The position numbers and the translations under genes are program-made. From a virus (lineage: Duplodnaviria > Heunggongvirae > Uroviricota > Caudoviricetes): 64,000 nt of DNA. Below the pieces are notes generated by a model. That model was not told the origin of the DNA. It made no database searches and saw only the letters and a list, made by a program, of their open reading frames with translations. This document shows positions 5,252 to 61,617 of the stretch, in pieces. The stretch is from IMG/VR virus record IMGVR_UViG_2974563859_000001; one strand, 5' to 3'. Numbering within the stretch: position 1 is the stretch's first letter; each line of letters starts with the position of its first letter.

Positions 5252-5413
5252 TTATTCTCTAGTTAGAGAATAAATTGCTTGTATTGCTTCATTCCCAATT
5301 TGACGAGAGTTTCGTCCCATTTGGTCTAACATATTCTTCTTTTCCCATATTAATCGTTCTGCTTCTTCATTAGCTTCTTTACTAAATACTCCACGTAGAG
5401 ATACTGTATCACC
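5252..5413 (-). CDS. RNA polymerase beta-prime N-terminal gene, last exon (GDTVSLRGVFSKEANEEAERLIW...YSLTRE*)
   Basis: Aligns to E. coli beta-prime [22 protein letters not shown]...LGLYYMTR. It has no start codon. It lies directly downstream of a td-like intron 3' end (...gaagattttG|ggtgat). Confidence 0.6.
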   Translation of the reverse strand, partial: GDTVSLRGVFSKEANEEAERLIWEKKNMLDQMGRNSRQIGNEAIQAIYSLTRE

Positions 5414-7303
5414 CAAAATCTTCCAGTAGATTCGCTACATCTACTGCGTTCTCTTATGAACTGCTCTATATTACTATAGAGATGAGACTATATCTTCACA
5501 ATATAATTGTGCCCTCCGTTTCCATTTAAAGAGGAATTATAACCTTATTACGGAATACCTCTACCGCTTGGCTGTACTCTACTCCCTTCCTTCTAACTAG
5601 CGTTATCACAACGATCTGTTAGAGTGGTTTCGATAGTCGTTGAACCTTCATCTTTAAATGAATTAAAGATGCTTGGATGCTGATTGTCCATATAGGATTT
5701 TCCAGCAGTTAAAAGGGTTTTACTACGACAGTAGATTATTATCTTTTATAGGTAAATACTAAATTACCACAATCCCATATTCTTTTAAATCTAGTTTTAT
5801 CCATGATTTCAAATTCAGTACTATCATCACTATATAATTTTGGAAATTTCTTTTTGAGATTAGACTTTCTATAATTAAATCTATGGAATCGTTGAGTTTT
5901 TTCAACGTTAACATACCAATAGTTGGGTTTACTAATATGACTTAATTCAAATTTATTATTGATATAAACATTGCCATCTGACCAGCGTTTATCTGCATAG
6001 GTTATTAATTCTTTCCACTCATAATTTCTCTCGAAGTATTTGAGAAGTTTACTAAAAGCACCTATTACTCTATAGTCCATATCGGTAGCGAATCTTGATA
6101 GTTCAAAAATATTATCAGCACTATTTCTACCTAGGCTTTTTCTAAGTTTACTAAAAGTCATTACCGCTACAAGTTCATCGCCATCTTCTTTTGGAAGCCA
6201 TAAGCCTAATTTAATTGATGACAAATCTTTTCCCTGAATGTGATTTCTTTCTAGGAATTCATTTTTAAAATTGTTATCAATTACTTCTACATAACAATTT
6301 CTAGCGTATATTTTAGTAGAATTATTTAATTTTAGTAGGTGTTTTATTTTTTCTTTTACTATGAGAGGTTTGTTAACCCATTCGTCTTCAAAAATTTGAA
6401 TTAGTCTAATCCCTTTACTATTACATTTTTCTAATTTTTCTAAATGATAGTTTCTTTTCTTCCCCATTTGCTCTGAATGCCAATATAAACCATTAAATTC
6501 AAAAGCAATTTTTTTGGAAGGAATAAATATATCAATCTCTTTACCTTCAAGTAATTTCCTGTCATTACATATGACTTTATCTACAACTAATCCTTTAATA
6601 AAAGAAGATAGTTCTTTTTCCATTTTTGATGAACTTTTAAATGCACAATATGGACATCTATTTCCATTATCAAAGTTTTTAATTGTAACTTCATACTCCT
6701 TATTACAACTATGATGTAACAATCTAATCTTCGTTTTATTATTACGATATTCACCTAATAATGAATACTCATTATTTGTAACTAAGCTAATTTTTCTTTT
6801 AACCTCATCAGTAGTTAGTCTTCTTTTACCAGAACATTGAGGACATCTATTTTTCAAAGCATAATAAGGAGTAGTCTTCCATTCATAATTACAGTCATTA
6901 CATCTGAAAAGTATTTTGGTATCGATATTGATATATTTCTCAAGACTTATAAGTCTTCCATTAGTCTTTTCTTTTAATTCCTTCTTAAACTCATCATTGC
7001 TTTTTAATCTTGATTTACCTTTATTAATATCAGCGCACTGAGGACATCTTCTACCATTATGAAATACATCAGGTCTAACCTCATATATATTTCCACATAA
7101 TTCATGCCTTAATTTGATTTTAGTCTTATTGTTAATATATTCATTGGATAAAACTGTATAGGTATTGTTAGTTAGTAATTTAACTTCTTCTTTGAATTCG
7201 TCCAGTGTCTTTTTATGTGGCATACATTAATACCTCCAAATAATTAATAATTATTTGTTTATTTGACACTGTATTCCCTTAAAAAGAAATAATATTAATT
7301 TTT
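5414..7303 (-). mobile_element. group I intron (phage IA2 / td-like core) carrying homing endonuclease ORF 5739..7223
   Basis: Core blocks AACGACTATCG and GAAGATATAGTCTCA plus the shared 3' tail agagcagttcataagagaacgc...gtagcgaatct. IGS gtcgtagt pairs the exon end actacgaT with a U-G pair at the junction. The junction splits the catalytic motif: D-Y-D | G-D. Confidence 0.6.
5739..7223 (-). CDS. homing endonuclease: N-terminal repeated zinc-finger modules plus C-terminal Vsr/EDxHD-like (DUF559-type) nuclease domain
   Basis: Repeated Y..L.EY.N..TKI...H..C...Y...P..F..G.RCP.C modules. C-terminal IAFEFNGLYWHSE. Paralogous to 7576..8493 and 34288..36051. Confidence 0.65.
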   Translation of the reverse strand: MPHKKTLDEFKEEVKLLTNNTYTVLSNEYINNKTKIKLRHELCGNIYEVRPDVFHNGRRCPQCADINKGKSRLKSNDEFKKELKEKTNGRLISLEKYINIDTKILFRCNDCNYEWKTTPYYALKNRCPQCSGKRRLTTDEVKRKISLVTNNEYSLLGEYRNNKTKIRLLHHSCNKEYEVTIKNFDNGNRCPYCAFKSSSKMEKELSSFIKGLVVDKVICNDRKLLEGKEIDIFIPSKKIAFEFNGLYWHSEQMGKKRNYHLEKLEKCNSKGIRLIQIFEDEWVNKPLIVKEKIKHLLKLNNSTKIYARNCYVEVIDNNFKNEFLERNHIQGKDLSSIKLGLWLPKEDGDELVAVMTFSKLRKSLGRNSADNIFELSRFATDMDYRVIGAFSKLLKYFERNYEWKELITYADKRWSDGNVYINNKFELSHISKPNYWYVNVEKTQRFHRFNYRKSNLKKKFPKLYSDDSTEFEIMDKTRFKRIWDCGNLVFTYKR

Positions 7304-7489
7304 ATCGTAGTCTCCGCCTAAAGCCTTTAAATAACCATTATAAGGAATTACTGTATCAACAAAAAGTTCATCCTCTGCGGGATAGTCAGGGTATATAACA
7401 GGATAATCAGGTAAGTATCTATCTTCCAGCTTTTGAGGTCGTGTTTCCTTTGTTGAAAGAATTCTTATTTTACTTGGATAAATATTCTA
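7304..7489 (-). CDS. RNA polymerase beta-prime N-terminal gene, internal exon (...IPYNGYLKALGGDYD)
   Basis: No ATG/GTG/TTG in frame. Ends in the DYD of the universally conserved NADFDGD motif. The 5' boundary is approximate. Confidence 0.45.
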
Positions 7490-9032
7490 TAGTGATAGGT
7501 AAAGATTTGATTTTATCTCCTCTTTTTCCCCCACTTCACACCCTACGTGCGACTTTCATCGCATAAGGCGTTCCATCAATTTAATAAAAATTTTTTAATA
7601 AGAATTGGTATACTATCGATTGGTGTATCATATTTAATTCTAAGAATTGGTAAATTATATTTCTTACAAAAATCATTTTTAATATTATCATGTTTTTGTA
7701 TTAATTCTAATTTTTTAATACGGTCATTTTCATCGTTACCAAAGATAGGAAGAAAATGTTGTCTACCATCATATTCTATTATAGCATTAAATTCCTCTAC
7801 AAAAAAATCAAAAGGTAAGGGTTTTCTATCTTTACATTCTTTAAAAGTTTTTTGATAGGTATATTCTGTTCCCATATTATTTAAAATATTTTTTATTAAT
7901 AATTCCCCACTACTCATTTTACAGTTTTTACATGAAAATTTATTAGATGTAATATTTTTTAATGAAAATTTATTAATAGTATTACACTCTAAATGTATTA
8001 TTTCTAATGGAGTTACATTATTTATATACTCACCAATCACTTTATACTCATTAGGATTTATTTTGTCTAACTGTTCTTGAACATATTCTTTATTTTTCTT
8101 AATAAGTCCTGAACAGTTAGGACAACGTCTCCCTAGAGATGTAAAATTTCCTGCTTTGACTTCATAAATGAATTTACATTTATTATGACGCATTGTTACC
8201 TTAGAATGATAATTTTTATAATTAGACAAAACAGTATATTCATCTTTTACTAATTCCTTAACCTTATTGATAAATTTTTCTGTAGTTAACTTTTCTTTTG
8301 AATTACAATGAGGACATCCATAACCCTGTAATAAGTTACAAGGTCTTGCCTCAAATTCTTTATTACAAATTTCATGTAATATTAAAATTTTTGTTTTAGA
8401 ATTAATATATTCACCAATTCGTTTGTAACCTTTTAGTATTTGATTTAGTCTTAAATCAAATGAAGTATTATCCAATTTTCTCATTAAAATCACTCCACAT
8501 AACTATTTATTATTATGTTTTGTGATTGTTCGATTATTTTTATTAAACTGACTATGACCCTTCGCTCCAATGGAGTTACCCATCTTCATAACTACTATGG
8601 TCTGCTGACTTTCTATATAAGAGTATCAACTATAATTTCTCTTATATAGAATCTCTGACGTTCCGTAAATGATAGTATAGCTATAACTTAGATGCCTTCT
8701 GCCCTATATAAACTTCTATTGTACCACACTTTACAATCAGGTCGTTCACCAGTACCGTATTACTAAACCCTGAATTTATATAGTATAAAAAGGTTCGTGT
8801 TCCTCATCATATTATAGCACCGCCCACCCTATCTATTAGTATTATAGTACTACTAATATTCAGATGACTTCACCTAACTTCATACAAATATTTTATATAG
8901 TTTAAAATAGATGCATGTAGGAGTATTAGCGACAAGTCTTCAATGAAAATGGTCATATCTTTTACTTGTTCTCATTTACAGTTTAGATTATAAAATCTAC
9001 TCCATTTCACATTAAATGCTTATAGGAGAACG
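7490..9032 (-). other. intervening sequence (putative intron of a different class) containing homing endonuclease ORF 7576..8493
   Basis: The beta-prime frame is broken by a stop at 9033-9035 and resumes at about 7489 without a start codon. The 540-nt segment at 8494-9032 is GC-richer and hairpin-rich. It lacks the td-like core blocks. Confidence 0.3.
7576..8493 (-). CDS. homing endonuclease paralog (zinc-finger modules + EDxHD/Vsr-like, IIEYDGRQH)
   Basis: Same architecture as 5739..7223. Confidence 0.6.
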   Translation of the reverse strand: MILMRKLDNTSFDLRLNQILKGYKRIGEYINSKTKILILHEICNKEFEARPCNLLQGYGCPHCNSKEKLTTEKFINKVKELVKDEYTVLSNYKNYHSKVTMRHNKCKFIYEVKAGNFTSLGRRCPNCSGLIKKNKEYVQEQLDKINPNEYKVIGEYINNVTPLEIIHLECNTINKFSLKNITSNKFSCKNCKMSSGELLIKNILNNMGTEYTYQKTFKECKDRKPLPFDFFVEEFNAIIEYDGRQHFLPIFGNDENDRIKKLELIQKHDNIKNDFCKKYNLPILRIKYDTPIDSIPILIKKFLLN

Positions 9033-10205
9033 TCACATACGATACTGCTCTATTGGATACCTTGTTACATATACATGTTTATCTTTGGTAATATCAACTG
9101 CCGCAATGAATAGAATATCAGTTAATGTAAAGTTACGCCCTAGTTCTTCTCTATATAATGGAATAGGAATTTCATTCCCCTTATCATCTTTAATCATTAA
9201 ACTATTAAAACGACTTTCAATAGACTTAATGTATAATGAGATCATCTTTTTTACTGCTTCTTCAGAGAACTGCTCTCTTATATTACTGATAGTTATCTCT
9301 TTTCCATTATGCTTAAATTTACTAAGTTCTGATTCACGTTCAAGAATATAATCTTGGATATATTTAAGAAAGAATGGATAAAATTCTACCACTAATTGTG
9401 ATAGGGGAATACCAGTCCATCCAAATCTAATAGGGTTATCCTTCCAGCTATTTGACTTAAATCGTGGTGCTGAGATTACACTACGAGTTGCATAATCAAC
9501 AGATTTACCTAAAGAGTTTTGATGGAACATACCATTTTTACCAGCTAAAGAGGATGTAAAATAGTCATAGATATCATATAAAAGAGTCTGAATAGATGAT
9601 TCTGTTATTACTCCCATAAAATCATAATCTTCACCCTTAGAAATTGATTGGCTATACCTAATTAATTTAGCATATTTGTCATTCACTTCATCAACAGCTT
9701 TAATCGTATCATTAGAAGATTTTGAGGGATTATAATCTCTATAAAATGCCGGAATCACTAAATATTTGTCAATAAATATATCATCCTTACCAAGTTTATT
9801 TAATAATGTAAGATAACTTGTTCTTCTATCAGTTCCAGTATTACTAAATTTTAATTGGTCATAAATAGTATAAAAATAGGTAACTCCAGTTTTACCATTA
9901 TCTTTATCTTCAACTAACCTACCGCCCTCAACTTTAAAATATTTTTTTCCAGATAGACAATCTGCAATTTTTCGATCCATAGAGGTTAGAAGCTTATAAA
10001 TTACTGGATGGAGAAATTTTCTCTTTAAGTCTATATAACCAAAAATTATTTTTCTTTCTTTACTTCCCGGATAACCAAAAATACTAGTTGAAAATAATCC
10101 ATCTTCAGTTGGTATATTTCCCATATTAAAGTAAACCGGATTTGTTACTTCTTTACATGCATGAGAAGTAATAAATTTATCTATATTTAATGTATCTATT
10201 TTCAT
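9033..10205 (-). CDS. RNA polymerase beta-prime N-terminal gene, first exon
   Basis: NSLGKSVDYATRSVISAPRF...GIP matches beta-prime NLLGKRVDYSGRSVIVVGP...QCGLP. The frame ends ...VYVTRYPIEQY, matching NRAPTLH. The 3' end is approximate. Confidence 0.65.
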   Translation of the reverse strand: MKIDTLNIDKFITSHACKEVTNPVYFNMGNIPTEDGLFSTSIFGYPGSKERKIIFGYIDLKRKFLHPVIYKLLTSMDRKIADCLSGKKYFKVEGGRLVEDKDNGKTGVTYFYTIYDQLKFSNTGTDRRTSYLTLLNKLGKDDIFIDKYLVIPAFYRDYNPSKSSNDTIKAVDEVNDKYAKLIRYSQSISKGEDYDFMGVITESSIQTLLYDIYDYFTSSLAGKNGMFHQNSLGKSVDYATRSVISAPRFKSNSWKDNPIRFGWTGIPLSQLVVEFYPFFLKYIQDYILERESELSKFKHNGKEITISNIREQFSEEAVKKMISLYIKSIESRFNSLMIKDDKGNEIPIPLYREELGRNFTLTDILFIAAVDITKDKHVYVTRYPIEQYRM

Positions 10206-30444: not shown

Positions 30445-30935
30445 GCGTTCAGTGGACTAAAAAAGTAGAAATAGATGTATTTAATGGACAAAAATTTAAT
30501 ATTGGTAATGCTTATAAAATTTTTGCAGATAATTCCACTTATACTGGTTTATTGAAAAAAGTTACTGATGATCAATTAGATTTTACAACTCTGAATCATG
30601 ATGTTTTTGTTAGCATTGGTGATATATTAGGTGGTAGTGTAAGAATTATTGAAATGAGCGCATATAATAAAATAGATTATAAACCGGGACAAGTTTTCAA
30701 ATTAATTAGTGGTATGACAATTTGTGGGGAACGAGTCTTTAGTAATTCACTAATAATAATTGATTCCATACTTTTAGGTTCTGAAGGAAAAGATTACTAT
30801 AATATTGTTATTAAAAATAAAGGTCAAATAACGAGAGAATTAAGTATAACTAAAGATAATTTTATAGAAATTGATAAAAACTCAGAGCAAATAAGGATGA
30901 CATCTAATGAATGGAAAAATATACAATTTGATTGA
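30441..30935 (+). CDS. hypothetical protein, paralog B2
   Basis: MSVQWTKKVEIDVFNGQKFNIGNAYKI...; paralogous to 29783..30316. Confidence 0.5.
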   Translation: MSVQWTKKVEIDVFNGQKFNIGNAYKIFADNSTYTGLLKKVTDDQLDFTTLNHDVFVSIGDILGGSVRIIEMSAYNKIDYKPGQVFKLISGMTICGERVFSNSLIIIDSILLGSEGKDYYNIVIKNKGQITRELSITKDNFIEIDKNSEQIRMTSNEWKNIQFD

Positions 30936-31215
30936 TTATCTAAACACAAGTACAAATTCATTAGTAGTGGGAAGGAAATATGGAAAAATCACACGTAAAT
31001 TAATGGACTTAAATAGATTAGATAAAACTACTGATACCATAGATATTATTTTTCCAGATACTATATTTATGGTATCTCCTTCATTCTTTCTAGGAATGTT
31101 TGAAGATATTTTTATACTATTGGAAAAAGAAAAATTTTTAAAAAAATATAATATAGTTTGTACTTTGTTTATAAAAGAATCATTATATAGTGCTATTAAT
31201 AGAGCTATCAAATAG
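30907..31215 (+). CDS. hypothetical protein
   Basis: 102 aa. Confidence 0.4.
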   Translation: MNGKIYNLIDYLNTSTNSLVVGRKYGKITRKLMDLNRLDKTTDTIDIIFPDTIFMVSPSFFLGMFEDIFILLEKEKFLKKYNIVCTLFIKESLYSAINRAIK

Positions 31216-31225
31216 GAGTGTTAAA

Positions 31226-31399
31226 ATGGTTAATATCATAGTACTACTAATTGTTTTATTTTTAATATTTATTGCAACTTTCGTCTATCAAGAATTTGCA
31301 AATACAGGATACGCAATGAGTGATTTTCTAACTGCTATACAAATTATTTCTGGAGGATTAATGTTTTGTATTCTTGCTAAGTTAATATTTGAAATGTAA
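31226..31399 (+). CDS. small membrane protein
   Basis: MVNIIVLLIVLFLIFIATFVY... Confidence 0.4.
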   Translation: MVNIIVLLIVLFLIFIATFVYQEFANTGYAMSDFLTAIQIISGGLMFCILAKLIFEM

Positions 31400-31483
31400 A
31401 TTTATTGTTTAAAAATTGATTTTTCTATAACTAAAATAGAGATTTAGTAACAATTTATCAGAGGAGGAATGTGTAATTGAAAG

Positions 31484-31633
31484 TAATGATTGGTTCAACA
31501 ATGATAGTACTTGCAATCTTATTTCTCTTGTGGTTAGCAATCAGTCCATTATTTGAGAAAATAGGTAGAAGTACCAGAAAAGTAAAAAATAATATTTTTA
31601 AGGGTGATGAGAATGACAGTGAGAAATAAGATT
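31484..31633 (+). CDS. small membrane protein
   Basis: MIGSTMIVLAILFLLWLAISPLFEK...; RBS ggagga. Confidence 0.35.
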
Positions 31634-32419
31634 ATTGGTGGTATCGTTGCAGGAGTAGTATTAATTGCTGGTTTAATTATCTCTATCTTTATGGTTGAGA
31701 AAATTCCAAATGGATATGTTGGTGTAGTTTATTCCCCTAATGGTGGAGTAAAAGAGACTACACTTGATCAAGGTTGGCATTGGATCAAGCCTTTTGATAA
31801 AGTTACAGAATATCCAGTTCGCATGCAAACAGTAAATAATAAAGACATCAAAGTAGCAACATCTGATGGTAAAAACATTGAAATGGATATTGCTTATAAC
31901 TATGTTGTACAACCAGATAAAGTAGTAGATGTATTTAATAAGTTTGGTTCAGTTAAAGTTGAACAAATTGAGAATTCATATCTTAAATCACGTTTATGGG
32001 ATGCCTCTCGTAAAGTGATCTCTAAATATTCAGTAATTGATACTTATGGTCAAAAATCTTCAGAAGCGGCTAGTGAAATTCAAAAAACATTTGCTGAAGA
32101 TATGAAGAAATATGGTTTTATTATTGATGATCTTACTTTAGGTGTGCCAAAGCCAGATAAAGCTACTCAAGATGCAATTGATGCTAGAGTTAAATCTTCT
32201 CAGGAATTAGAACGTTCTCAAACTGAAATCAAGATTGCTAAAGCAGATGCTGAGAGGAAGAAAATTGAAGCTCAAGGTGTTGCAGATGCCAATGAGATCA
32301 TTAAGAAGTCTATGTCTAAAGAAATTATTATGAATAAATGGATTGAAAAGTGGGATGGTAAAATGCCAAAAGCAACTGGTACTAACTCACTTCTTCAACT
32401 TCCTTTAGAAGACAAATAA
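31604..32419 (+). CDS. SPFH / band-7 (stomatin/HflKC-like) membrane protein
   Basis: N-terminal transmembrane helix followed by GYVGVVYSPNGGVKETTLDQGWHWIKPF... Confidence 0.6.
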   Translation: MMRMTVRNKIIGGIVAGVVLIAGLIISIFMVEKIPNGYVGVVYSPNGGVKETTLDQGWHWIKPFDKVTEYPVRMQTVNNKDIKVATSDGKNIEMDIAYNYVVQPDKVVDVFNKFGSVKVEQIENSYLKSRLWDASRKVISKYSVIDTYGQKSSEAASEIQKTFAEDMKKYGFIIDDLTLGVPKPDKATQDAIDARVKSSQELERSQTEIKIAKADAERKKIEAQGVADANEIIKKSMSKEIIMNKWIEKWDGKMPKATGTNSLLQLPLEDK

Positions 32420-37251: not shown

Positions 37252-37611
37252 CGTTAACTTCCATTAGATTCGCTACGTCTAATGCGTTCTCTTATGAACT
37301 GCTCTATATTTCTATAGAGACGAGACTATATCACTATCCTTATCTATTAAGGATAACCCCCATTTCCATTTAAGGGATTCTCACCCACTCCAATCGCTTG
37401 AGCCGTACTCCTATTGCGGAATTTCACCGCTACTCACAATCCTAAGATTGCTTTCGGATAGTCGTTGAACCTTCATTGTTATTTATAACAATGCTTGGAT
37501 GCTGATTGTCCATATATCCTTTAGATTGTTACACTTTGGTACTAAAGGCTTTAGGATTTTCCAGCAGTTAAAGGGTTTTGCTAGCAATATTACTACTACT
37601 AGGCACGAATC
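37252..37611 (-). mobile_element. group I intron (td-like, no ORF) in the beta gene
   Basis: ctttaactgctgg, caacgactatcc, gatatagtctcg and the tail ...gcgaatctaatggaagttaacG. Confidence 0.55.
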
Positions 37612-37788
37612 ATGCTTTTGCTGCGTTGTTTGCATTCCAACGCGCGGTGGGTCGGCATGACGAGCAGTAAAGGAGTTTAATAACTCTGCCGGACCATAGA
37701 TATTTGTCGTATTATTTTTTGTATTAGGATTGGTGTCTAAGAATCCTCGTGTGTTTTTGAATGCTGGATCAAAAGTTAACTGTCTAAC
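37612..37788 (-). CDS. RNA polymerase beta gene, exon 4 (VRQLTFDPAFKNTRGFLDT...FTARHADPPRVGMQTTQQKH)
   Basis: GC-rich island. GFLDT matches GFLET. ARHADPPRVGMQTTQQ matches EHDDANRALMGANMQRQ. Confidence 0.55.
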
Positions 37789-38837
37789 CCATTACCTTCA
37801 TATAGGTTCGCTACACCTATACCGTTCTCTTATGAACTGCTCTATGTTACCATAGAGATGAGACTATATCTTTATCTAGTCAAAAAAAAAGAAAGGAGAT
37901 GACTAGATATCTCCCATTTCCATTTAAGGGATTCTCACCCACTCCAATCGCTTGAGCCGTACTCCTATTGTGTGTTAACCACTAAAGGATAGTCGTTGAA
38001 CGTTACTCTCGTTATAATTAAAAATAATTTATAAAACCGTTTTTCTCAGCAATTTCTTTTCTAAAAGTAATTGCTAGTTCTTTAGCTTTTTCAAAACCAT
38101 ATTTATTAACTGCAAATGTTTTAATAAATTTTTTATGATTAACACGGATTTCAGATTCCCATCTATTTTTCTTTTTAGAATATCTTATTCCTTTAATTCC
38201 AGAAGTATTATCGTTTCTTAGTGATGTATTTCTATTATTCATCATTTGAGAAACCTCACGCAAATTACTTTTTCTATTATTTAAACTATTTCTATCTATA
38301 TGATCAATTACATTATTATTATCTTTAATATCCATTAGGTATCTATGAAGCTTTCCACCTGAATTACTTGAAATATAAAATGAATTATTTCTTTTAGACC
38401 AGATAGCTCTCCAAACATGCTTATTTATTTTATCAATATCTTCAATATCAATTTGAGATTTTACGATACCATATGTTTTTGAAAAAGTAACTAATAATGC
38501 ATGATCATCTAATACTTCAATAAAATTATATGCTCTTTTTCCTTCTTTTAATGTTTTCATAGCTATACGCTCACTATAATCTCCATATAAAACTTCTGAA
38601 TAATGTGCAAGGGAATTTGATTTCTTTTCTTTATTATAGAAACTTACTCTCCATAATTTTTGTTCTTTTAGATATATTATTTTATTTTTTTCCATAATAG
38701 TAGCTCTCCTTTTTAACTTACTACTATTATAATATATATTTAACGAGAGTCTTCGATACGGATTGTCCTATTATTAGGAGTTTCCCGTAGTTAGAGAGAT
38801 TTTATCATTATATATCACTATATAAGGGGGCAGTTTA
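37789..38837 (-). mobile_element. group I intron with HNH-AP2 homing endonuclease (38018..38695) inserted in a stem-loop
   Basis: Stem ctctcgtt/aacgagag flanks the ORF. The td-like 3' core lies at 37789-38010. Confidence 0.5.
38018..38695 (-). CDS. HNH homing endonuclease with C-terminal AP2 DNA-binding domain
   Basis: IDHIDRNSLNNRKSNLREVS (HNH) and GIRYSKKKNRWESEIRVNHKK (AP2). RBS aaggagagc. Promoter-like motif on the minus strand at 38728-38741. Confidence 0.7.
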   Translation of the reverse strand: MEKNKIIYLKEQKLWRVSFYNKEKKSNSLAHYSEVLYGDYSERIAMKTLKEGKRAYNFIEVLDDHALLVTFSKTYGIVKSQIDIEDIDKINKHVWRAIWSKRNNSFYISSNSGGKLHRYLMDIKDNNNVIDHIDRNSLNNRKSNLREVSQMMNNRNTSLRNDNTSGIKGIRYSKKKNRWESEIRVNHKKFIKTFAVNKYGFEKAKELAITFRKEIAEKNGFINYF

Positions 38838-38852
38838 ATTCACCCCAACTTT
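38838..38852 (-). CDS. RNA polymerase beta gene, proposed 15-nt micro-exon (KVGVN)
   Basis: Lies between a td-like intron 3' end (...ggaagataatG) and the next intron, which starts taa after an exon T. It restores the conserved (I/V)GL(I/V)N segment. Confidence 0.35.
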
Positions 38853-39187
38853 CATTATCTTCCACTAGATTCGCTACATCTAATGCGTTCTCTTATGAAC
38901 TGCTTCATGTTACCATGAAGATGAGACTATATCATCATCCTATTAGGATGCCTCCCATTTCCAACTCCAATCGCTTGAGTTGTACTCTACTCCCTTCCTT
39001 CTAACTAGCGTTATCACAACGATCTGTTAGAGTGGTTTCGATAGTCGTTGAACCTTACTCTAATGAGTCTTGGATGCTGATTGTCCTTAAAGGATTTTCC
39101 AGCAGTTAAAGAGGTTTACTTATAATATTTCTATTATAAGGGACTATTATAAATCTTGTCTGGGAATTCAAGAATTATAATAATTCA
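38853..39187 (-). mobile_element. group I intron (td-like, no ORF)
   Basis: Complete core: ctttaactgctgg, caacgactatcg, gatatagtctca and the tail gtagcgaatctagtgg. Confidence 0.5.
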
Positions 39188-39265
39188 ATCCGAGTCGGGT
39201 GTTGACATTGCCATGATTCCACGCATACTAGGGTCATAAGCCCGAATATCAGTTGTATAAGCATC
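39188..39265 (-). CDS. RNA polymerase beta gene, proposed 78-nt micro-exon (DAYTTDIRAYDPSMRGIMAMSTPDSD)
   Basis: STPDS matches the universal ETPEG motif. Flanked by a td-like 3' end (...gaaggaaaacG) and a 5' exon-T|tga junction. Confidence 0.45.
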
Positions 39266-39649
39266 CGTTTTCCTTCATATAGGTTCGCTACACCTATACC
39301 GTTCCTTAGAACTGCTCTAAGTTTCCCTAGAGACGAGACTATATCATCACTTAAAAGTGCCTCCCATTTCCAGCCTCAATCGCTTAGACTGTACTCTACT
39401 CCCTTCCACTAACTAGCATTATTGTAATGATCTGTTAGAGTGGTTTCGATAGTCGTTGAACCTTTACCTTATTACAAATAATTTGTAACTTAGGTACTTG
39501 GTTGCTTATGATTACCCAATCCTTTAAATTTTTACCATACCTGAATTGTTATATTCAGCCATCTATTATGTTTCCATATAGATTTGGTATTAAAGGCTCT
39601 AAGGGTTTTCCAGCAGTTAAAGAGGTTTTAATTGGACTAAAACACTTTA
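39266..39649 (-). mobile_element. group I intron (td-like, no ORF)
   Basis: Begins taaagtgttttaGTCCAATtaaaacctctttaactgctgg. IGS gtccaa pairs the exon end ttggaT. Confidence 0.55.
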
Positions 39650-42445
39650 ATCCAAGTTCCTTCCTGAAAGCCCCTTGTAAGTAGCCGCACCACCCTTTTC
39701 AATTTCCAAAGAAGGGTTAAGGACACTATATTCATCGACAGTAGGTGAATTCATTAATGTCTTTAATAGAATATCCTGTGGAACAGACATCTTAATAGGA
39801 TTACCAGCTTTCAGTGTATCCTTATACGTTTTAAATGAATCTGCCAAGATTTTATACAAGTAGGCGTTTACTTGCTCAGTACCACGGATTCGATATGAAT
39901 TCATATCATTCAGTGGACTATAGCTCATATCTTCCAATAAGGTATTCGCATACAACAATATGTCATAGATATTCTCAGGTAATTCTAACTGTTTCAGTAC
40001 ATCTAATGTGATAGGATCAACCATTAGAGATAGAGTATTATGGAGACCTTTACCCATATTTCTGCTACCAAACATCTCATAGAAAGTTTCAATATAAGGA
40101 TCTTTAGAGTTCATTTCTTCAAATGTATACTCTTCAGTAGCCATAGTACTTAGACCACTTAATAATAAGGAATTTCTCAATAAAGAATTATTATAATATA
40201 GGTATCCATCTTTAAAACGGATCTTATCATAGTCATCATCAATTGTAATTCTCTTATTCTTAGTATCAAAGCTATATTCAATATTATATCTTTCTAATAA
40301 ATCTTCTAATCCTAATTCATATCCAAGAAGAACCACTAAAGGAATCATTCTATTATTAATACGAACTCGGTTATATGCTAGAGACTTAGAATTACTTAAA
40401 GAAGATAATTTTTTATAAGCTTCCTCACTAAGTGAAGTAACAACAACTTTAATAATGAGTTCTGAAAGACTCATATCAGTATTTTCTTGTTTCTTATTAT
40501 TAATCAGATAAACTCTTTTACTTGAACGCTTAAGAGCAATAACATTTTCATTATCTTTTGTATGACCGATTGGTAAGAATTGTTTATCATCAATATTAAT
40601 CTTAGCAAGCTTAGCCATATTATCAAGATCACTTTTCAATAAATCTTCTACTTCTTTTTGACTGAACATAAGTTTATATTCATCATTCTCTAAGCTTAGA
40701 AGGAAGGAAGAGATTTCATTATATTCAAGAGTTGTTTCATATCCCTCATTAATTGTTAGAGCGTTACCTAGACGATAATTAAACTTCTTACCTGATACTT
40801 TAAATTCATTTAGATCCATACCAAAAAGCTTCTTAAGTTTCTCAGTTTTATGAGATAGCTTAGAACCAAAGCGCATGACAAAAAACTTATTGTAGTTAGT
40901 AGTAATCTGAACTTCATCAGGTTTTGTTTTTACAATGGGTAAAGATAGAATTTGCTTAAGAATTAATTTTTTACCACCATTAATATTCATAAACCTACCA
41001 TCTCTGATAATAGGATAATCAAATTTAACAGTATGCTTTACATTACGATCATCTTGGAAAGTAACAGTGTAAGTTAATTTCTTTGATAAATCAGTAGATG
41101 TGTCTTCTGTTTTAATATCACTTACAAATAATTTAACATCGCTATCTCCATTAAATGATGAAAGAACTGCAACTAAGTCTTTTTTCATCTGTTTCTCAAA
41201 GTAGCTCATATCAAAATCTTTAAGATTTGAATATCTAGTTTCTTCTTGAATAACATTTGTATTGGTAATTGGCTTTCGGTCAATACTTGTTGATTTAAAA
41301 TCATCAATAATATCTTGAATATTAATATCATCAAGAGTAACTTGTTTTTGTTTTTCTTTTAGGCGTTCAAGAGTCTTTCTCTGTTTAATTTCATCTCCAC
41401 CAGTAGACTGAAGCTCTTTAAGAGTTGAAACATCAGCTTTTAATTCCTTACTGTTATTTAAGATATCAATGATTTCATCTTCACTTTTATCAAGAATATC
41501 TTCATCACTTGAATCAATAGCTTTTTCAATATCATCACCAATCTTATCAGTAACTTCAATTGCACTACTGGATAATTTTGTATTTCCATCAATTTGGAAA
41601 TTACTTAATAATTTTTCTTTAACTTTTTCAGATTTTTCTTTTACTAATGCATCTCTCTTGTTTTCTGTTTCTTGAGTTGCATCTTCTTTACCTAAAGGTT
41701 TTTCATCATTATTAGTCCTCTGATGATTTGCTGTTTTAATAAGAATATTTAATGCATTAAGGAATCTATTTGCAAGAAGATTAGAAAGTTCATCATTAAT
41801 ATTGAATTTAATAAATGTATTATTAACTGTAGTATAAAAAATAAAGTCTACATTCTTAAGCTCTTTCTTCTGTTCCTCTGTTAACAACTTTCTTTTAATT
41901 GCCATATAGATATAAGCAAAAGGTGTTCTTGCATTATTTAAGTCAAAGAATGATGGATCAAGAACATTGTCAGGAACAGGAATTGCTACTGCTTTATTCT
42001 CATATGATGCGCCCTCTTTAATTTTAGATATAAGAAACTCAAAATACATTTCAACTCGTTTTCTTCCACGAACTTTAATCTCTACTTCATTCTCAAGATG
42101 CTCATTTGTAATATCATAGATCAAGTTAAGATCATTATAATTAGTTAAAGCACGTTTAGTATAAATAATACTGGAGCATTTTGCTTTTACCTCATCATAA
42201 TATTTCTTTTGATCTACAATAATTCTTTTATTCTTTTGAACAGTATTGAATGCTCTTGGAATATATACTCCTCTAAAAAAAGAAGGACTGAATATATTAG
42301 AATTAATAAAATCAAATATTTCACTTTGATTATTTCCTGAAAAGAAAATCAAATTTGAATTACGGTCATTTTTCCTTTTTTTAATGGATGAAAGTTTTAT
42401 ATTAGAGTACACTCTCAATTCCTTGAGATTATCAAGATAAAACAA
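39650..42445 (-). CDS. RNA polymerase beta N-terminal gene, exon 1 (TTG start)
   Basis: Ends ...NPSLEIEKGGAATYKGLSGRNLD, matching [20 protein letters not shown]. RBS aaggaagtggg. Confidence 0.6.
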
Positions 42446-60150: not shown

Positions 60151-61176
60151 ATGGCAGATGAACAGCAAAACGTTGATGAACAACAGTCACAGATAATTGG
60201 AGATGAGTTTTTCCAAGAAGGTAACTCTAATTCAGATTCAAAAGGTGGATTTGGAACAAGTGTAGAATATACTGATGGTTTTGAAGCGTTAATTGGATCT
60301 TCTAAGGGTGGTTCTGGTTCTTATGCTACACCTACATGGAATCCATATAAATCAGATAGTGTATTAGGCTTACCTTTATACTACAATGATTTAGCGGATC
60401 CTTCGGGAAGAGTATACAATCAAACCATTATTCAAGATATTCCTAATATATACATGGTTCCCGGAATTCCATCTATTAATAGAAATATGATTGACGTAGC
60501 AGGAAAACGTATTATTCCTGCTACTCTTTCTCGTGCATTAATGGATTTTCAAAATAATCCAAATAGTATTTTTAATTTTGGAGTTAGAGGAGTAAAAAGT
60601 GGTAATGACCTTCGTTTCATAGGGTTTAAAGCAGATTATTCTGAATACTTTAAATATGTACAAACTATGTTAAGTACTATACATTCATATATGGCAATGG
60701 ATGGCATATTTGATTTATATAGATTCTCAGATGACTTTAATAATAGTTTTAAAAATTATGGATTATGTTTTTATGCAGATAAATCTACAACTATTTCTGA
60801 GTCAGCTGATAATACTTATGCGGCTTCTAGAACAGCAGAAATGGTAAGTGAGAAAGCGGCTACTTTAAGGGAAGCAGATTTATTATATCCTACAGGAAGT
60901 ACAACATCTCGTATTGTTGACTCAATTAAAGCGGCTAATCCAATTGGTGTACTAGAATCATTAGGTTCATTTGATGGAATTATCACTCGTACATCAAATG
61001 CATTATTTCGTGTTGTAAATGGATCACAATTAATGTTCCCTGACTTTTGGCAAGATTCTAGATTTGATAAATCTTATAATATTAGTTTCAAATTTTATAG
61101 TCCTTATGGTGATAGAGAAAGTATATTTAGATACGTGTATGTACCTTTTATAGCACTATTAGCATTAGCATTGCCT
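60151..61176 (+). CDS. virion structural protein gene, exon 1
   Basis: The ORF ends at a T followed by intron-initial taa. Intron IGS gggcaat pairs the exon end attgccT. Confidence 0.55.
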
Positions 61177-61617
61177 TAAATGACGGGGCAATTAAAACTC
61201 TTTTAACTGCTGGAACATCCTTAGAGCTTATTAGACTACAACGTGACTGGTGACAGTGAGCGTGAATGTTTAAAAACTAATAAGATTGGACAATCAGCAA
61301 CTAGTTAAAACTTCCACATGGAAGTTACTAGCTCAACGACTATCGAAACCACATCATTTGATGGAAGGAAGTAGAGTACCCCACAAGCGTGGTTACATTT
61401 AGGCATAAATGTAAGTATAGTAAACTAATACTATATGGGAAACAAAGAGCATGATGAAGGCAAAAAGCTGGAGTGAAGATATAGTCTCAACTTCTATGGA
61501 AACATAGAGCATGATGAAGGCAAAAAGCTGGAGTGAAGATATAGTCTCAACTTCTATGGAAACATAGAGCAGTTCATAAGAGAACGCACTGAAGTAGCGA
61601 CTCAGTGGAAGGTTATG
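61177..61617 (+). mobile_element. group I intron 1 (td-like, no ORF) with internal 60-nt tandem duplication
   Basis: taaatgacGGGGCAATtaaaactcttttaactgctgg ... caacgactatcg ... gaagatatagtctca ... gcgactcagtggaaggttatG. Confidence 0.55.

Follow-up and report, generated by a model that had tools for sequence, protein, structure and literature searches.

Our analysis makes it highly probable that a functional, self-splicing group IIB intron interrupts the gene for the virion RNA polymerase N-terminal beta-prime-like subunit of Bacillus phage PBS1; it most likely spreads through a homing endonuclease encoded in its domain 4 (D4; the other domains are abbreviated likewise). The intron occupies positions 9040..7489 on the minus strand of a 64,000-nucleotide (nt) stretch of a Caudoviricetes virus (IMG/VR record IMGVR_UViG_2974563859_000001), hereafter the window, to which all coordinates refer unless another sequence is named. 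A preliminary description of this DNA had recognized a second interruption of beta-prime, different in kind from the group I introns nearby and carrying a homing endonuclease. This view is borne out, as group II models match the element and the endonuclease open reading frame (ORF) is present. The candidates that it offered (a group I intron of another subclass, a degenerate intron, a bypass or hop element) all missed the mark, since two Rfam group II matches (RF02004, E = 4e–17; RF00029, E = 1e–9) and covariation of tertiary contacts identify an intact group IIB intron. The covariance-model search including group II models, proposed there as a check, is what classifies the element as group II.

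Source, host gene and boundaries

Region 7200-9300 of the window matches Bacillus phage PBS1 (MF360957, 30352-32452) at 100% identity and phage AR9 at 99.4%. In the sister phage vB_BsuM-Goe21 (Goe21) the same gene is uninterrupted (1512 nt, 503 amino acids (aa)) and lacks precisely the element: Goe21 nt 1-1165 align with window 10205..9041 at 98.8%, nt 1166-1350 align with 7488..7304, and the remainder aligns with exon 3. The existence of this intron-less allele fixes both junctions, with exon 1 ending at 9041, exon 2 starting at 7488 and 1552 nt between them. The interruption as first delimited, 9032..7490, is therefore real, but its ends were off by 8 nt on the 5′ side and by 1 nt on the 3′ side. 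The ORF 10205..9033 exists as described and encodes 390 aa with the C-terminus ...VTRYPIEQYRM; its last 8 nt (R, M and the stop codon) are intron sequence. It is also true that the frame resumes without a start: upstream of exon 2 we read no in-frame ATG, GTG or TTG, the ORF list holds none in that frame, and the exon 2 frame is closed directly upstream by a TAG whose T is the final intron nucleotide and whose AG belongs to the exon. Placement of the break in a segment equivalent to NRAPTLH is plausible by pattern (TRYPIEQY versus NRAPTLHR), and alignment with a hidden Markov model gave no confirmation of it.

At the second junction, once the overlap is resolved, exon 2 (7488..7304) is followed by a group I intron (7303..5414) and exon 3 (5413..5252). 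The three-exon translation of 503 aa equals AR9 protein AMS01229.1 exactly, and AR9 is annotated with a three-piece join; the depositors thus chose the same junctions. The PBS1 record MF360957 treats this locus (genes 32-35, window 5252-10205) in another way: exon 1 (390 aa) bears the label 'RNA polymerase beta subunit' and exon 3 the label 'hypothetical protein'; exon 2 is unannotated and there are no intron features. The AR9 record, with its join, labels the endonuclease gene g147 'group I intron VSR'.

Class and anatomy of the ribozyme

The Rfam search was run at gathering thresholds. Model RF02004 (group-II-D1D4-5) matches 8986..8813 on the minus strand with 80.7 bits in a local search, and RF00029 (D5/D6) matches 7573..7489 on the minus strand with 55.2 bits, the gathering score being 40. 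Both matches lie on the same strand and in the right order, on either side of the endonuclease ORF. In contrast, the group I model RF00028 has no match in 7300-9200 even when the threshold is relaxed to E ≤ 1, while it finds six other introns in the window, and the absence of a td-like group I core that had been noted from the letters is thereby upheld. The remark that 8494-9032 is GC-richer and hairpin-dense also agrees with our measurements: GC content is 29–34% in the 5′ non-coding part of the intron versus 20–28% in the endonuclease ORF, and folding beats all shuffles both for intron nt 1-501 (z = –3.38) and for D5-D6, the 3′-terminal 99 nt (z = –3.95).

Elements of the ribozyme are given in Table 1. 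The class IIB assignment follows from a 4-nt bulge of AARC type at epsilon-prime/lambda, AAGU in PBS1 and AAGC in relatives, and from RF02004 being the best D1-D4 model. The intron begins with GUAUG, a variant of GUGYG at nt 3, and ends with AU, which fits the AY rule; the bulged A of D6 is the 8th nt from the 3′ end. The stop codon of the endonuclease ORF sits in the 3′ strand of the D4 basal stem. Two further candidates for exon-binding sites (EBS), the partners of the intron-binding sites (IBS) in the exon, were rejected. A second EBS1 at intron nt 414-419 (GAUACU) is a perfect 6-mer, yet it lies inside the D2 stem and shows no covariation; an EBS2 at nt 130-135 falls within Ic, a stem of the Rfam consensus.

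Comparison with related introns

Related introns were taken from Internexus, from Staphylococcus phages S6, PALS_2 and MarsHill, and from Listeria phage LPJP1, which has two; nine further relatives are metagenomic contigs reached via the closest endonuclease homologues (individual sequences are denoted by L numbers where needed). In a 10-sequence alignment 42 of the 74 consensus pairs are changed on both sides. In each of the 12 introns compared, the partner of nt 3 is the last base of the GAAGN bulge, the pair being A-U, C-G, U-A or G-C; this covariation explains the unusual 5′ end of the PBS1 intron. The loop homologous to EBS1 is complementary to its own exon tail in eight different intron/exon combinations (PBS1, L009/L010, L012, L013, S6, PALS_2 and both LPJP1 introns), with CAGUAUC/GGUACUG versus CAAUAUC/GGUAUUG as a compensated pair. 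The epsilon–epsilon′ and EBS1–IBS1 interactions are pseudoknot or tertiary contacts, which covariance models ignore. The GAAA receptor, whose contact with the D5 loop such models do not use either, is conserved across the relatives and contains a compensated pair in PBS1, the D4 stem covaries in L009, L010, L012, L013 and S6, and positions comparable to EBS2 pair also in S6 and in both LPJP1 introns.

Internexus has an ORF-less copy of the intron, 595 nt long and 99% identical in the RNA parts. A 19-nt D4 hairpin there (L002, 3749-3768) replaces the 952-nt endonuclease insert of window 8551-7576, suggesting that the endonuclease gene was lost (or gained) cleanly and not long ago. MarsHill has a group II intron at the PBS1 insertion site (L008, 979-1959 and 1922-1993), the endonuclease ORF of which runs through D5 with no stop in the D4 stem.

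The PBS1/AR9 intron is already published; it is the same element, and nothing essential differs from our description. Merk, Jones and Eddy (NAR 2025, PMC12350094) list in their Table S1 PBS1 NC_043027 32192..30641, which corresponds to window 9040..7489, as class B, D1D4-5, CGC, GTATG and AT, with an endonuclease ORF at 31636..30731. The ORF-less Internexus copy is also in their list, and a figure of theirs presents the pair formed by a group I and a group II intron within the virion RNA polymerase beta-prime gene. They see in the PBS1 protein CapR-like repeats together with an EDxHD/Vsr-like nuclease, place proteins of this type as an outgroup of EDxHD/Vsr endonucleases, and credit the first mention of the AR9 example to Lavysh et al. 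2016. What we add is small: the link of an AR9 late transcription start to D4, the divergence of exon 2, nine metagenomic relatives and a sister clade shifted by 15 nt.

The endonuclease in domain 4

The ORF 8493..7576, present where the preliminary description had placed it, comprises 305 aa when read from its GTG. Translation probably begins at the ATG at 8484, 8 nt upstream of which stands GGAG, and then yields 302 aa. The protein matches PHROG 559 (E = 1.5e–75) and has the fold of Vsr and I-Bth0305I, that is, of PD-(D/E)xK type. In a 40-sequence alignment there are three H..C..CxxC modules; residues D226, E237, H243, D266 and K269 do not vary, and conservation of D239 is at least 90%. Pfam and PHROG searches with the intron ORF return zinc-finger/CapR and endonuclease families only, with no reverse transcriptase or maturase (X) domain. 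Since D4 holds an endonuclease instead of a reverse transcriptase/maturase, mobility of the intron is most likely DNA-based.

The nine close homologues examined (∼300 aa, at least 41% identity) are all found in group II introns whose D4 is organized as in PBS1, and this suggests that the endonuclease keeps the unit spreading. The endonuclease of the neighbouring group I intron is 31% identical to that in D4 (E = 1e–27), and in a neighbour-joining tree the group II-resident proteins cluster apart from this group I paralogue. A 306-aa homologue with 36% identity (L020, 3001-3921) lies outside any group II intron, among other CapR-type endonuclease genes, and the same contig has a group I intron ∼2.3 kb downstream of it.

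Late expression of the host gene and the endonuclease

Late transcription starts were taken from the late-promoter table (Table S3) of the AR9 differential RNA sequencing (dRNA-seq) study, and the 51-mers given there were located in the window. In AR9 the genes g145-g147 are all late. The primary start of g147 at 121466 (minus strand), with an untranslated region of 24 nt, has a 51-mer identical in the window, which puts the start at 8508, and the 51 nt upstream of this start are the 5′ strand of D4. The late promoter motif is found 23-35 nt upstream of the ATG in six of the seven endonuclease-bearing introns. Late starts mapped in AR9 also correspond to window 10227 for the host gene and to 7248 for the group I endonuclease gene.

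Divergence of exon 2

Compared with intron-less Goe21, exon 2 differs at 30 of 185 nt (16%), nearly all of these changes being synonymous and only two altering an amino acid, while exon 1 and exon 3 are 1.2% and 0.6% divergent, respectively. Around the insertion site, the PBS1 and Goe21 alleles share an identical 47-nt sequence that runs from –7 to +40. Judged by sequence, this looks like the pattern expected of endonuclease-initiated gene conversion from a diverged donor.

A sister clade at a shifted site

The endonucleases of L013, L017 and L018 form a monophyletic clade in the neighbour-joining tree, and their introns are inserted in the same gene 15 nt upstream of the PBS1 site; these introns sit after TRY of TRYPIE, the PBS1 intron between PIEQY and Q. 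Both insertion sites end with RUAUC (AUAUC in the shifted clade, GUAUC in PBS1), the sequence bound by EBS1. It is tempting to combine these observations into one scenario, in which an endonuclease-carrying IIB lineage switched its site within the same gene, RNA-guided target choice perhaps persists, and the endonuclease is maybe a weapon against intron-less co-infecting Takahashivirus phages, for which gp210 of phage PhiPA3 (see below) could serve as a model. As a whole we hold this to be rather unlikely.

Neighbouring group I introns

The group I intron 5414..7303, just downstream of exon 2, carries the gene for the paralogous endonuclease, 494 aa in length (7223..5739). Five more Rfam group I matches are found in the window, four in 37302-39692 (minus strand) and one in 61156-61509 (plus strand). 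The four lie within 2.4 kb and adjoin PBS1 genes 78-80 ('RNA polymerase beta subunit', HNH endonuclease).

Table 1. Features of the interrupted gene and its group II intron (window coordinates unless a contig is named)
Feature	Position	Strand	Basis or remark
Exon 1, virion RNA polymerase beta-prime N-terminal subunit gene (AR9 g145 homologue)	9041..10205	-	Goe21 alignment; AR9 Table S3 51-mer exact
IBS2 AUAGAG, tentative	9048..9053	-	6 bp with intron nt 251-256, two G-U; statistically not secure
IBS1 CAGUAUC, last 7 nt of exon 1	9041..9047	-	pairs with EBS1 GGUACUG
Whole group IIB intron, 1552 nt, GUAUG...CACUAU	7489..9040	-	Rfam matches; absent from Goe21; NC_043027 32192..30641 in Merk et al. 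Table S1
Epsilon AU, intron nt 3-4	9037..9038	-	nt 3 covaries with last GAAGN bulge base of D1
D1, intron nt 7-384, closing stem GACGUUC / GGAACGUC	8657..9034	-	4/7 stem pairs changed on both sides; RF02004 covers 8986..8813
Epsilon-prime (G163, U164) in 4-nt AAGU bulge	8877..8878	-	IIB-typical; criterion per Merk et al.
Tetraloop receptor, 5′ half UAUGA (11-nt GAAA receptor), zeta element	8807..8811	-	relatives UAUGG...CCUAAG, PBS1 UAUGA...UCUAAG: compensated pair
EBS2 UUUUAU, tentative	8785..8790	-	pairing with IBS2
EBS1 GGUACUG, terminal loop of D1	8750..8756	-	fold; pairing with IBS1
Tetraloop receptor, 3′ half UCUAAG	8687..8692	-	comparison with relatives
D2 hairpin, intron nt 387-433	8608..8654	-	minimum-free-energy fold; boundaries approximate
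D3, intron nt 439-485	8556..8602	-	consensus helix with compensatory changes; weak RF01998 match 8650..8557; boundaries approximate
D4, 12-bp basal stem (8551..8540 with 7587..7576) around 952-nt endonuclease insert	7576..8551	-	Internexus comparison; covariation
Late (non-virion RNA polymerase) promoter motif AACAUAAUAAUA (AACA-N6-TA), start = final A at 8508	8508..8519	-	AR9 dRNA-seq Table S3
Homing endonuclease gene, likely 302 aa + stop	7576..8484	-	three H..C..CxxC zinc modules ∼8433..7915; C-terminal Vsr/EDxHD-type nuclease ∼7911..7579
D5, CGC catalytic triad, 2-nt bulge, GAAA tetraloop, 34 nt	7538..7571	-	RF00029; fold; 5/14 pairs compensatory
D6, bulged branch-point A at 7496 (intron nt 1545)	7491..7535	-	RF00029; fold; alignment
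Exon 2, 185 nt, between group II and group I introns	7304..7488	-	Goe21 alignment; junctions resolved
Group I intron splitting catalytic DYDGD motif between DYD and GD	5414..7303	-	RF00028 at 5775..5464; junction resolved
Exon 3	5252..5413	-	Goe21 alignment; three-exon translation equals AMS01229.1
Shifted-clade introns	L013 2475-4002; L017 2485-3990; L018 ending at 2316

Discussion

Taken together, the anatomy and the mapped AR9 starts suggest how the element may work. The gene would be transcribed late from 10227, and D1, to judge by sequence and covariation, would dock the 5′ exon through EBS1–IBS1 and probably also EBS2–IBS2. With the GAAA loop of D5 held in the D1 receptor, the active site around the CGC triad would permit an attack on the 5′ splice site by the bulged A (7496). 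Release of the lariat would then join ...CAGUAUC to AGAAU... and restore ...YPIEQYQNIYPSK..., so that the ligated product expected at the DNA level reads ...CAGTATC/AGAATATT... (the slash marks the junction). The downstream group I intron would be removed independently. From its own late promoter the endonuclease, which combines a Vsr/EDxHD nuclease of PD-(D/E)xK type with three zinc-finger modules for DNA binding, would be expressed, and in a mixed infection it would be predicted to cut an allele without the intron, for instance the Goe21 one. The break would be repaired by recombination with the intron-plus genome, and the intron would thereby be copied in along with flanking exon sequence.

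Several points weigh against such a reading. In vivo, group II introns as a rule depend on a maturase, and none is encoded in the PBS1 intron (the rest of the genome was not scanned). The 5′ GUAUG departs from GUGYG, though this is compensated in epsilon-prime; EBS2 is weak, with 6 bp that include two G-U pairs; and EBS3 was not located, no fitting column being found in the MAFFT alignment, which is unreliable in the middle of D1. Divergence of exon 2 could come from either of the neighbouring introns, or from recombination unrelated to homing. It should be noted as well that Merk et al. state that splicing was outside their tests.

Of the other explanations, the one that survives best accepts the ribozyme as described and has it spread at the RNA level, by retrohoming or reverse splicing with a reverse transcriptase supplied in trans, the endonuclease being a later passenger of minor importance for mobility. 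We consider it quite improbable. The shifted clade, whose insertion site, 15 nt upstream, terminates in the same EBS1-bound AUAUC, is what such spread could produce, and trans-acting reverse transcriptases are raised by Merk et al. for ORF-less phage introns. However, no reverse transcriptase is known in these phages (no genome-wide test was made), all nine close endonuclease homologues examined stay in group II introns of one D4 architecture, and the exon 2 pattern resembles DNA co-conversion.

Less probable still is a dead or degenerate intron remnant, with the gene split, exon 1 acting as a separate 390-aa polypeptide and the later pieces unused or started independently. The PBS1 GenBank annotation, with its 390-aa exon 1 ORF and a separate 'hypothetical' ORF for exon 3, corresponds to this picture. 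But a TAG at the junction closes the frame of exon 2, in which there is no start codon; the catalytic elements are all intact and have been conserved through compensatory changes; and the exons are under purifying selection, 30 nt changes resulting in 2 aa changes. The catalytic DYDGD motif lies downstream of the intron, straddling the exon 2/exon 3 junction, and exon 1 alone would therefore be inactive; the AR9 annotation as a three-piece join likewise does not fit a remnant.

An unusual subclass of group I intron is scarcely credible. Six group I introns in the same window, an endonuclease paralogous to that of a group I intron and the note 'group I intron VSR' on AR9 g147 may all bring it to mind, but RF00028 remains silent in 7300-9200 at E ≤ 1 where two group II models match strongly, and D5, D6, epsilon–epsilon′ and EBS1 are all group II-specific. 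Practically no weight can be given to translational bypassing by a hop element like that of T4 gene 60, or to programmed recoding: the reading frame does stop and resume without a start codon, but the gap measures 1552 nt (versus ∼50 nt for the T4 gene 60 type), encloses a complete ribozyme along with a gene that is expressed, and is missing as a discrete unit from the sister phage.

Among known systems, mobile group II introns of the Ll.LtrB type share with PBS1 the six-domain ribozyme, an ORF in D4, EBS–IBS recognition and the branch-point A. The PBS1 ORF, unlike that of Ll.LtrB, lacks reverse transcriptase, maturase (X) and En domains, which excludes retrohoming by the intron's own protein. 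Closer in this respect are the fungal mitochondrial group II introns with LAGLIDADG proteins (Mullineux et al. 2010), which, as far as they are presented by Merk et al., likewise have a DNA homing endonuclease and no reverse transcriptase, with DNA-level mobility presumed as for PBS1. On the same account the nuclease differs, being LAGLIDADG in the fungal introns and Vsr/EDxHD PD-(D/E)xK with zinc-finger modules in PBS1, and so does the host gene, an organelle rRNA gene there and a protein-coding phage gene here. I-Bth0305I (EDxHD, PDB 3r3p) has a different DNA-binding part from the CapR-like zinc modules of PBS1, and its host is a group I intron whereas that of the PBS1 enzyme is group II.

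In the jumbo phage PhiPA3, an intron within a virion RNA polymerase subunit gene encodes the HNH endonuclease gp210; when a relative co-infects, gp210 cleaves its intron-less allele and confers a competitive advantage (Birkholz et al. 2024, PMC11620839). The PBS1 endonuclease shares with it the residence in an intron of such a gene; gp210 is, however, an HNH nickase, unlike the PBS1 enzyme. The host intron of gp210 is a group I intron. By analogy, a similar competitive role of the PBS1 endonuclease against Goe21-like phages is plausible.

To our knowledge, group II introns were long believed to be absent from phages, and we know of few anywhere that carry a DNA homing endonuclease in place of a reverse transcriptase. 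The analysis also shows that the PBS1 GenBank annotation of the beta-prime gene is incomplete. If it is true that the move to the shifted site occurred by reverse splicing and not by illegitimate DNA repair, RNA-guided targeting would survive without a reverse transcriptase. PBS1, a classical transducing phage, has in an essential polymerase gene a group II intron beside a group I intron with a paralogous endonuclease. This pair makes a convenient system to study in vivo splicing of a maturase-less intron, the association of ribozymes with endonuclease genes, and whether intron endonucleases decide the outcome of mixed infections.

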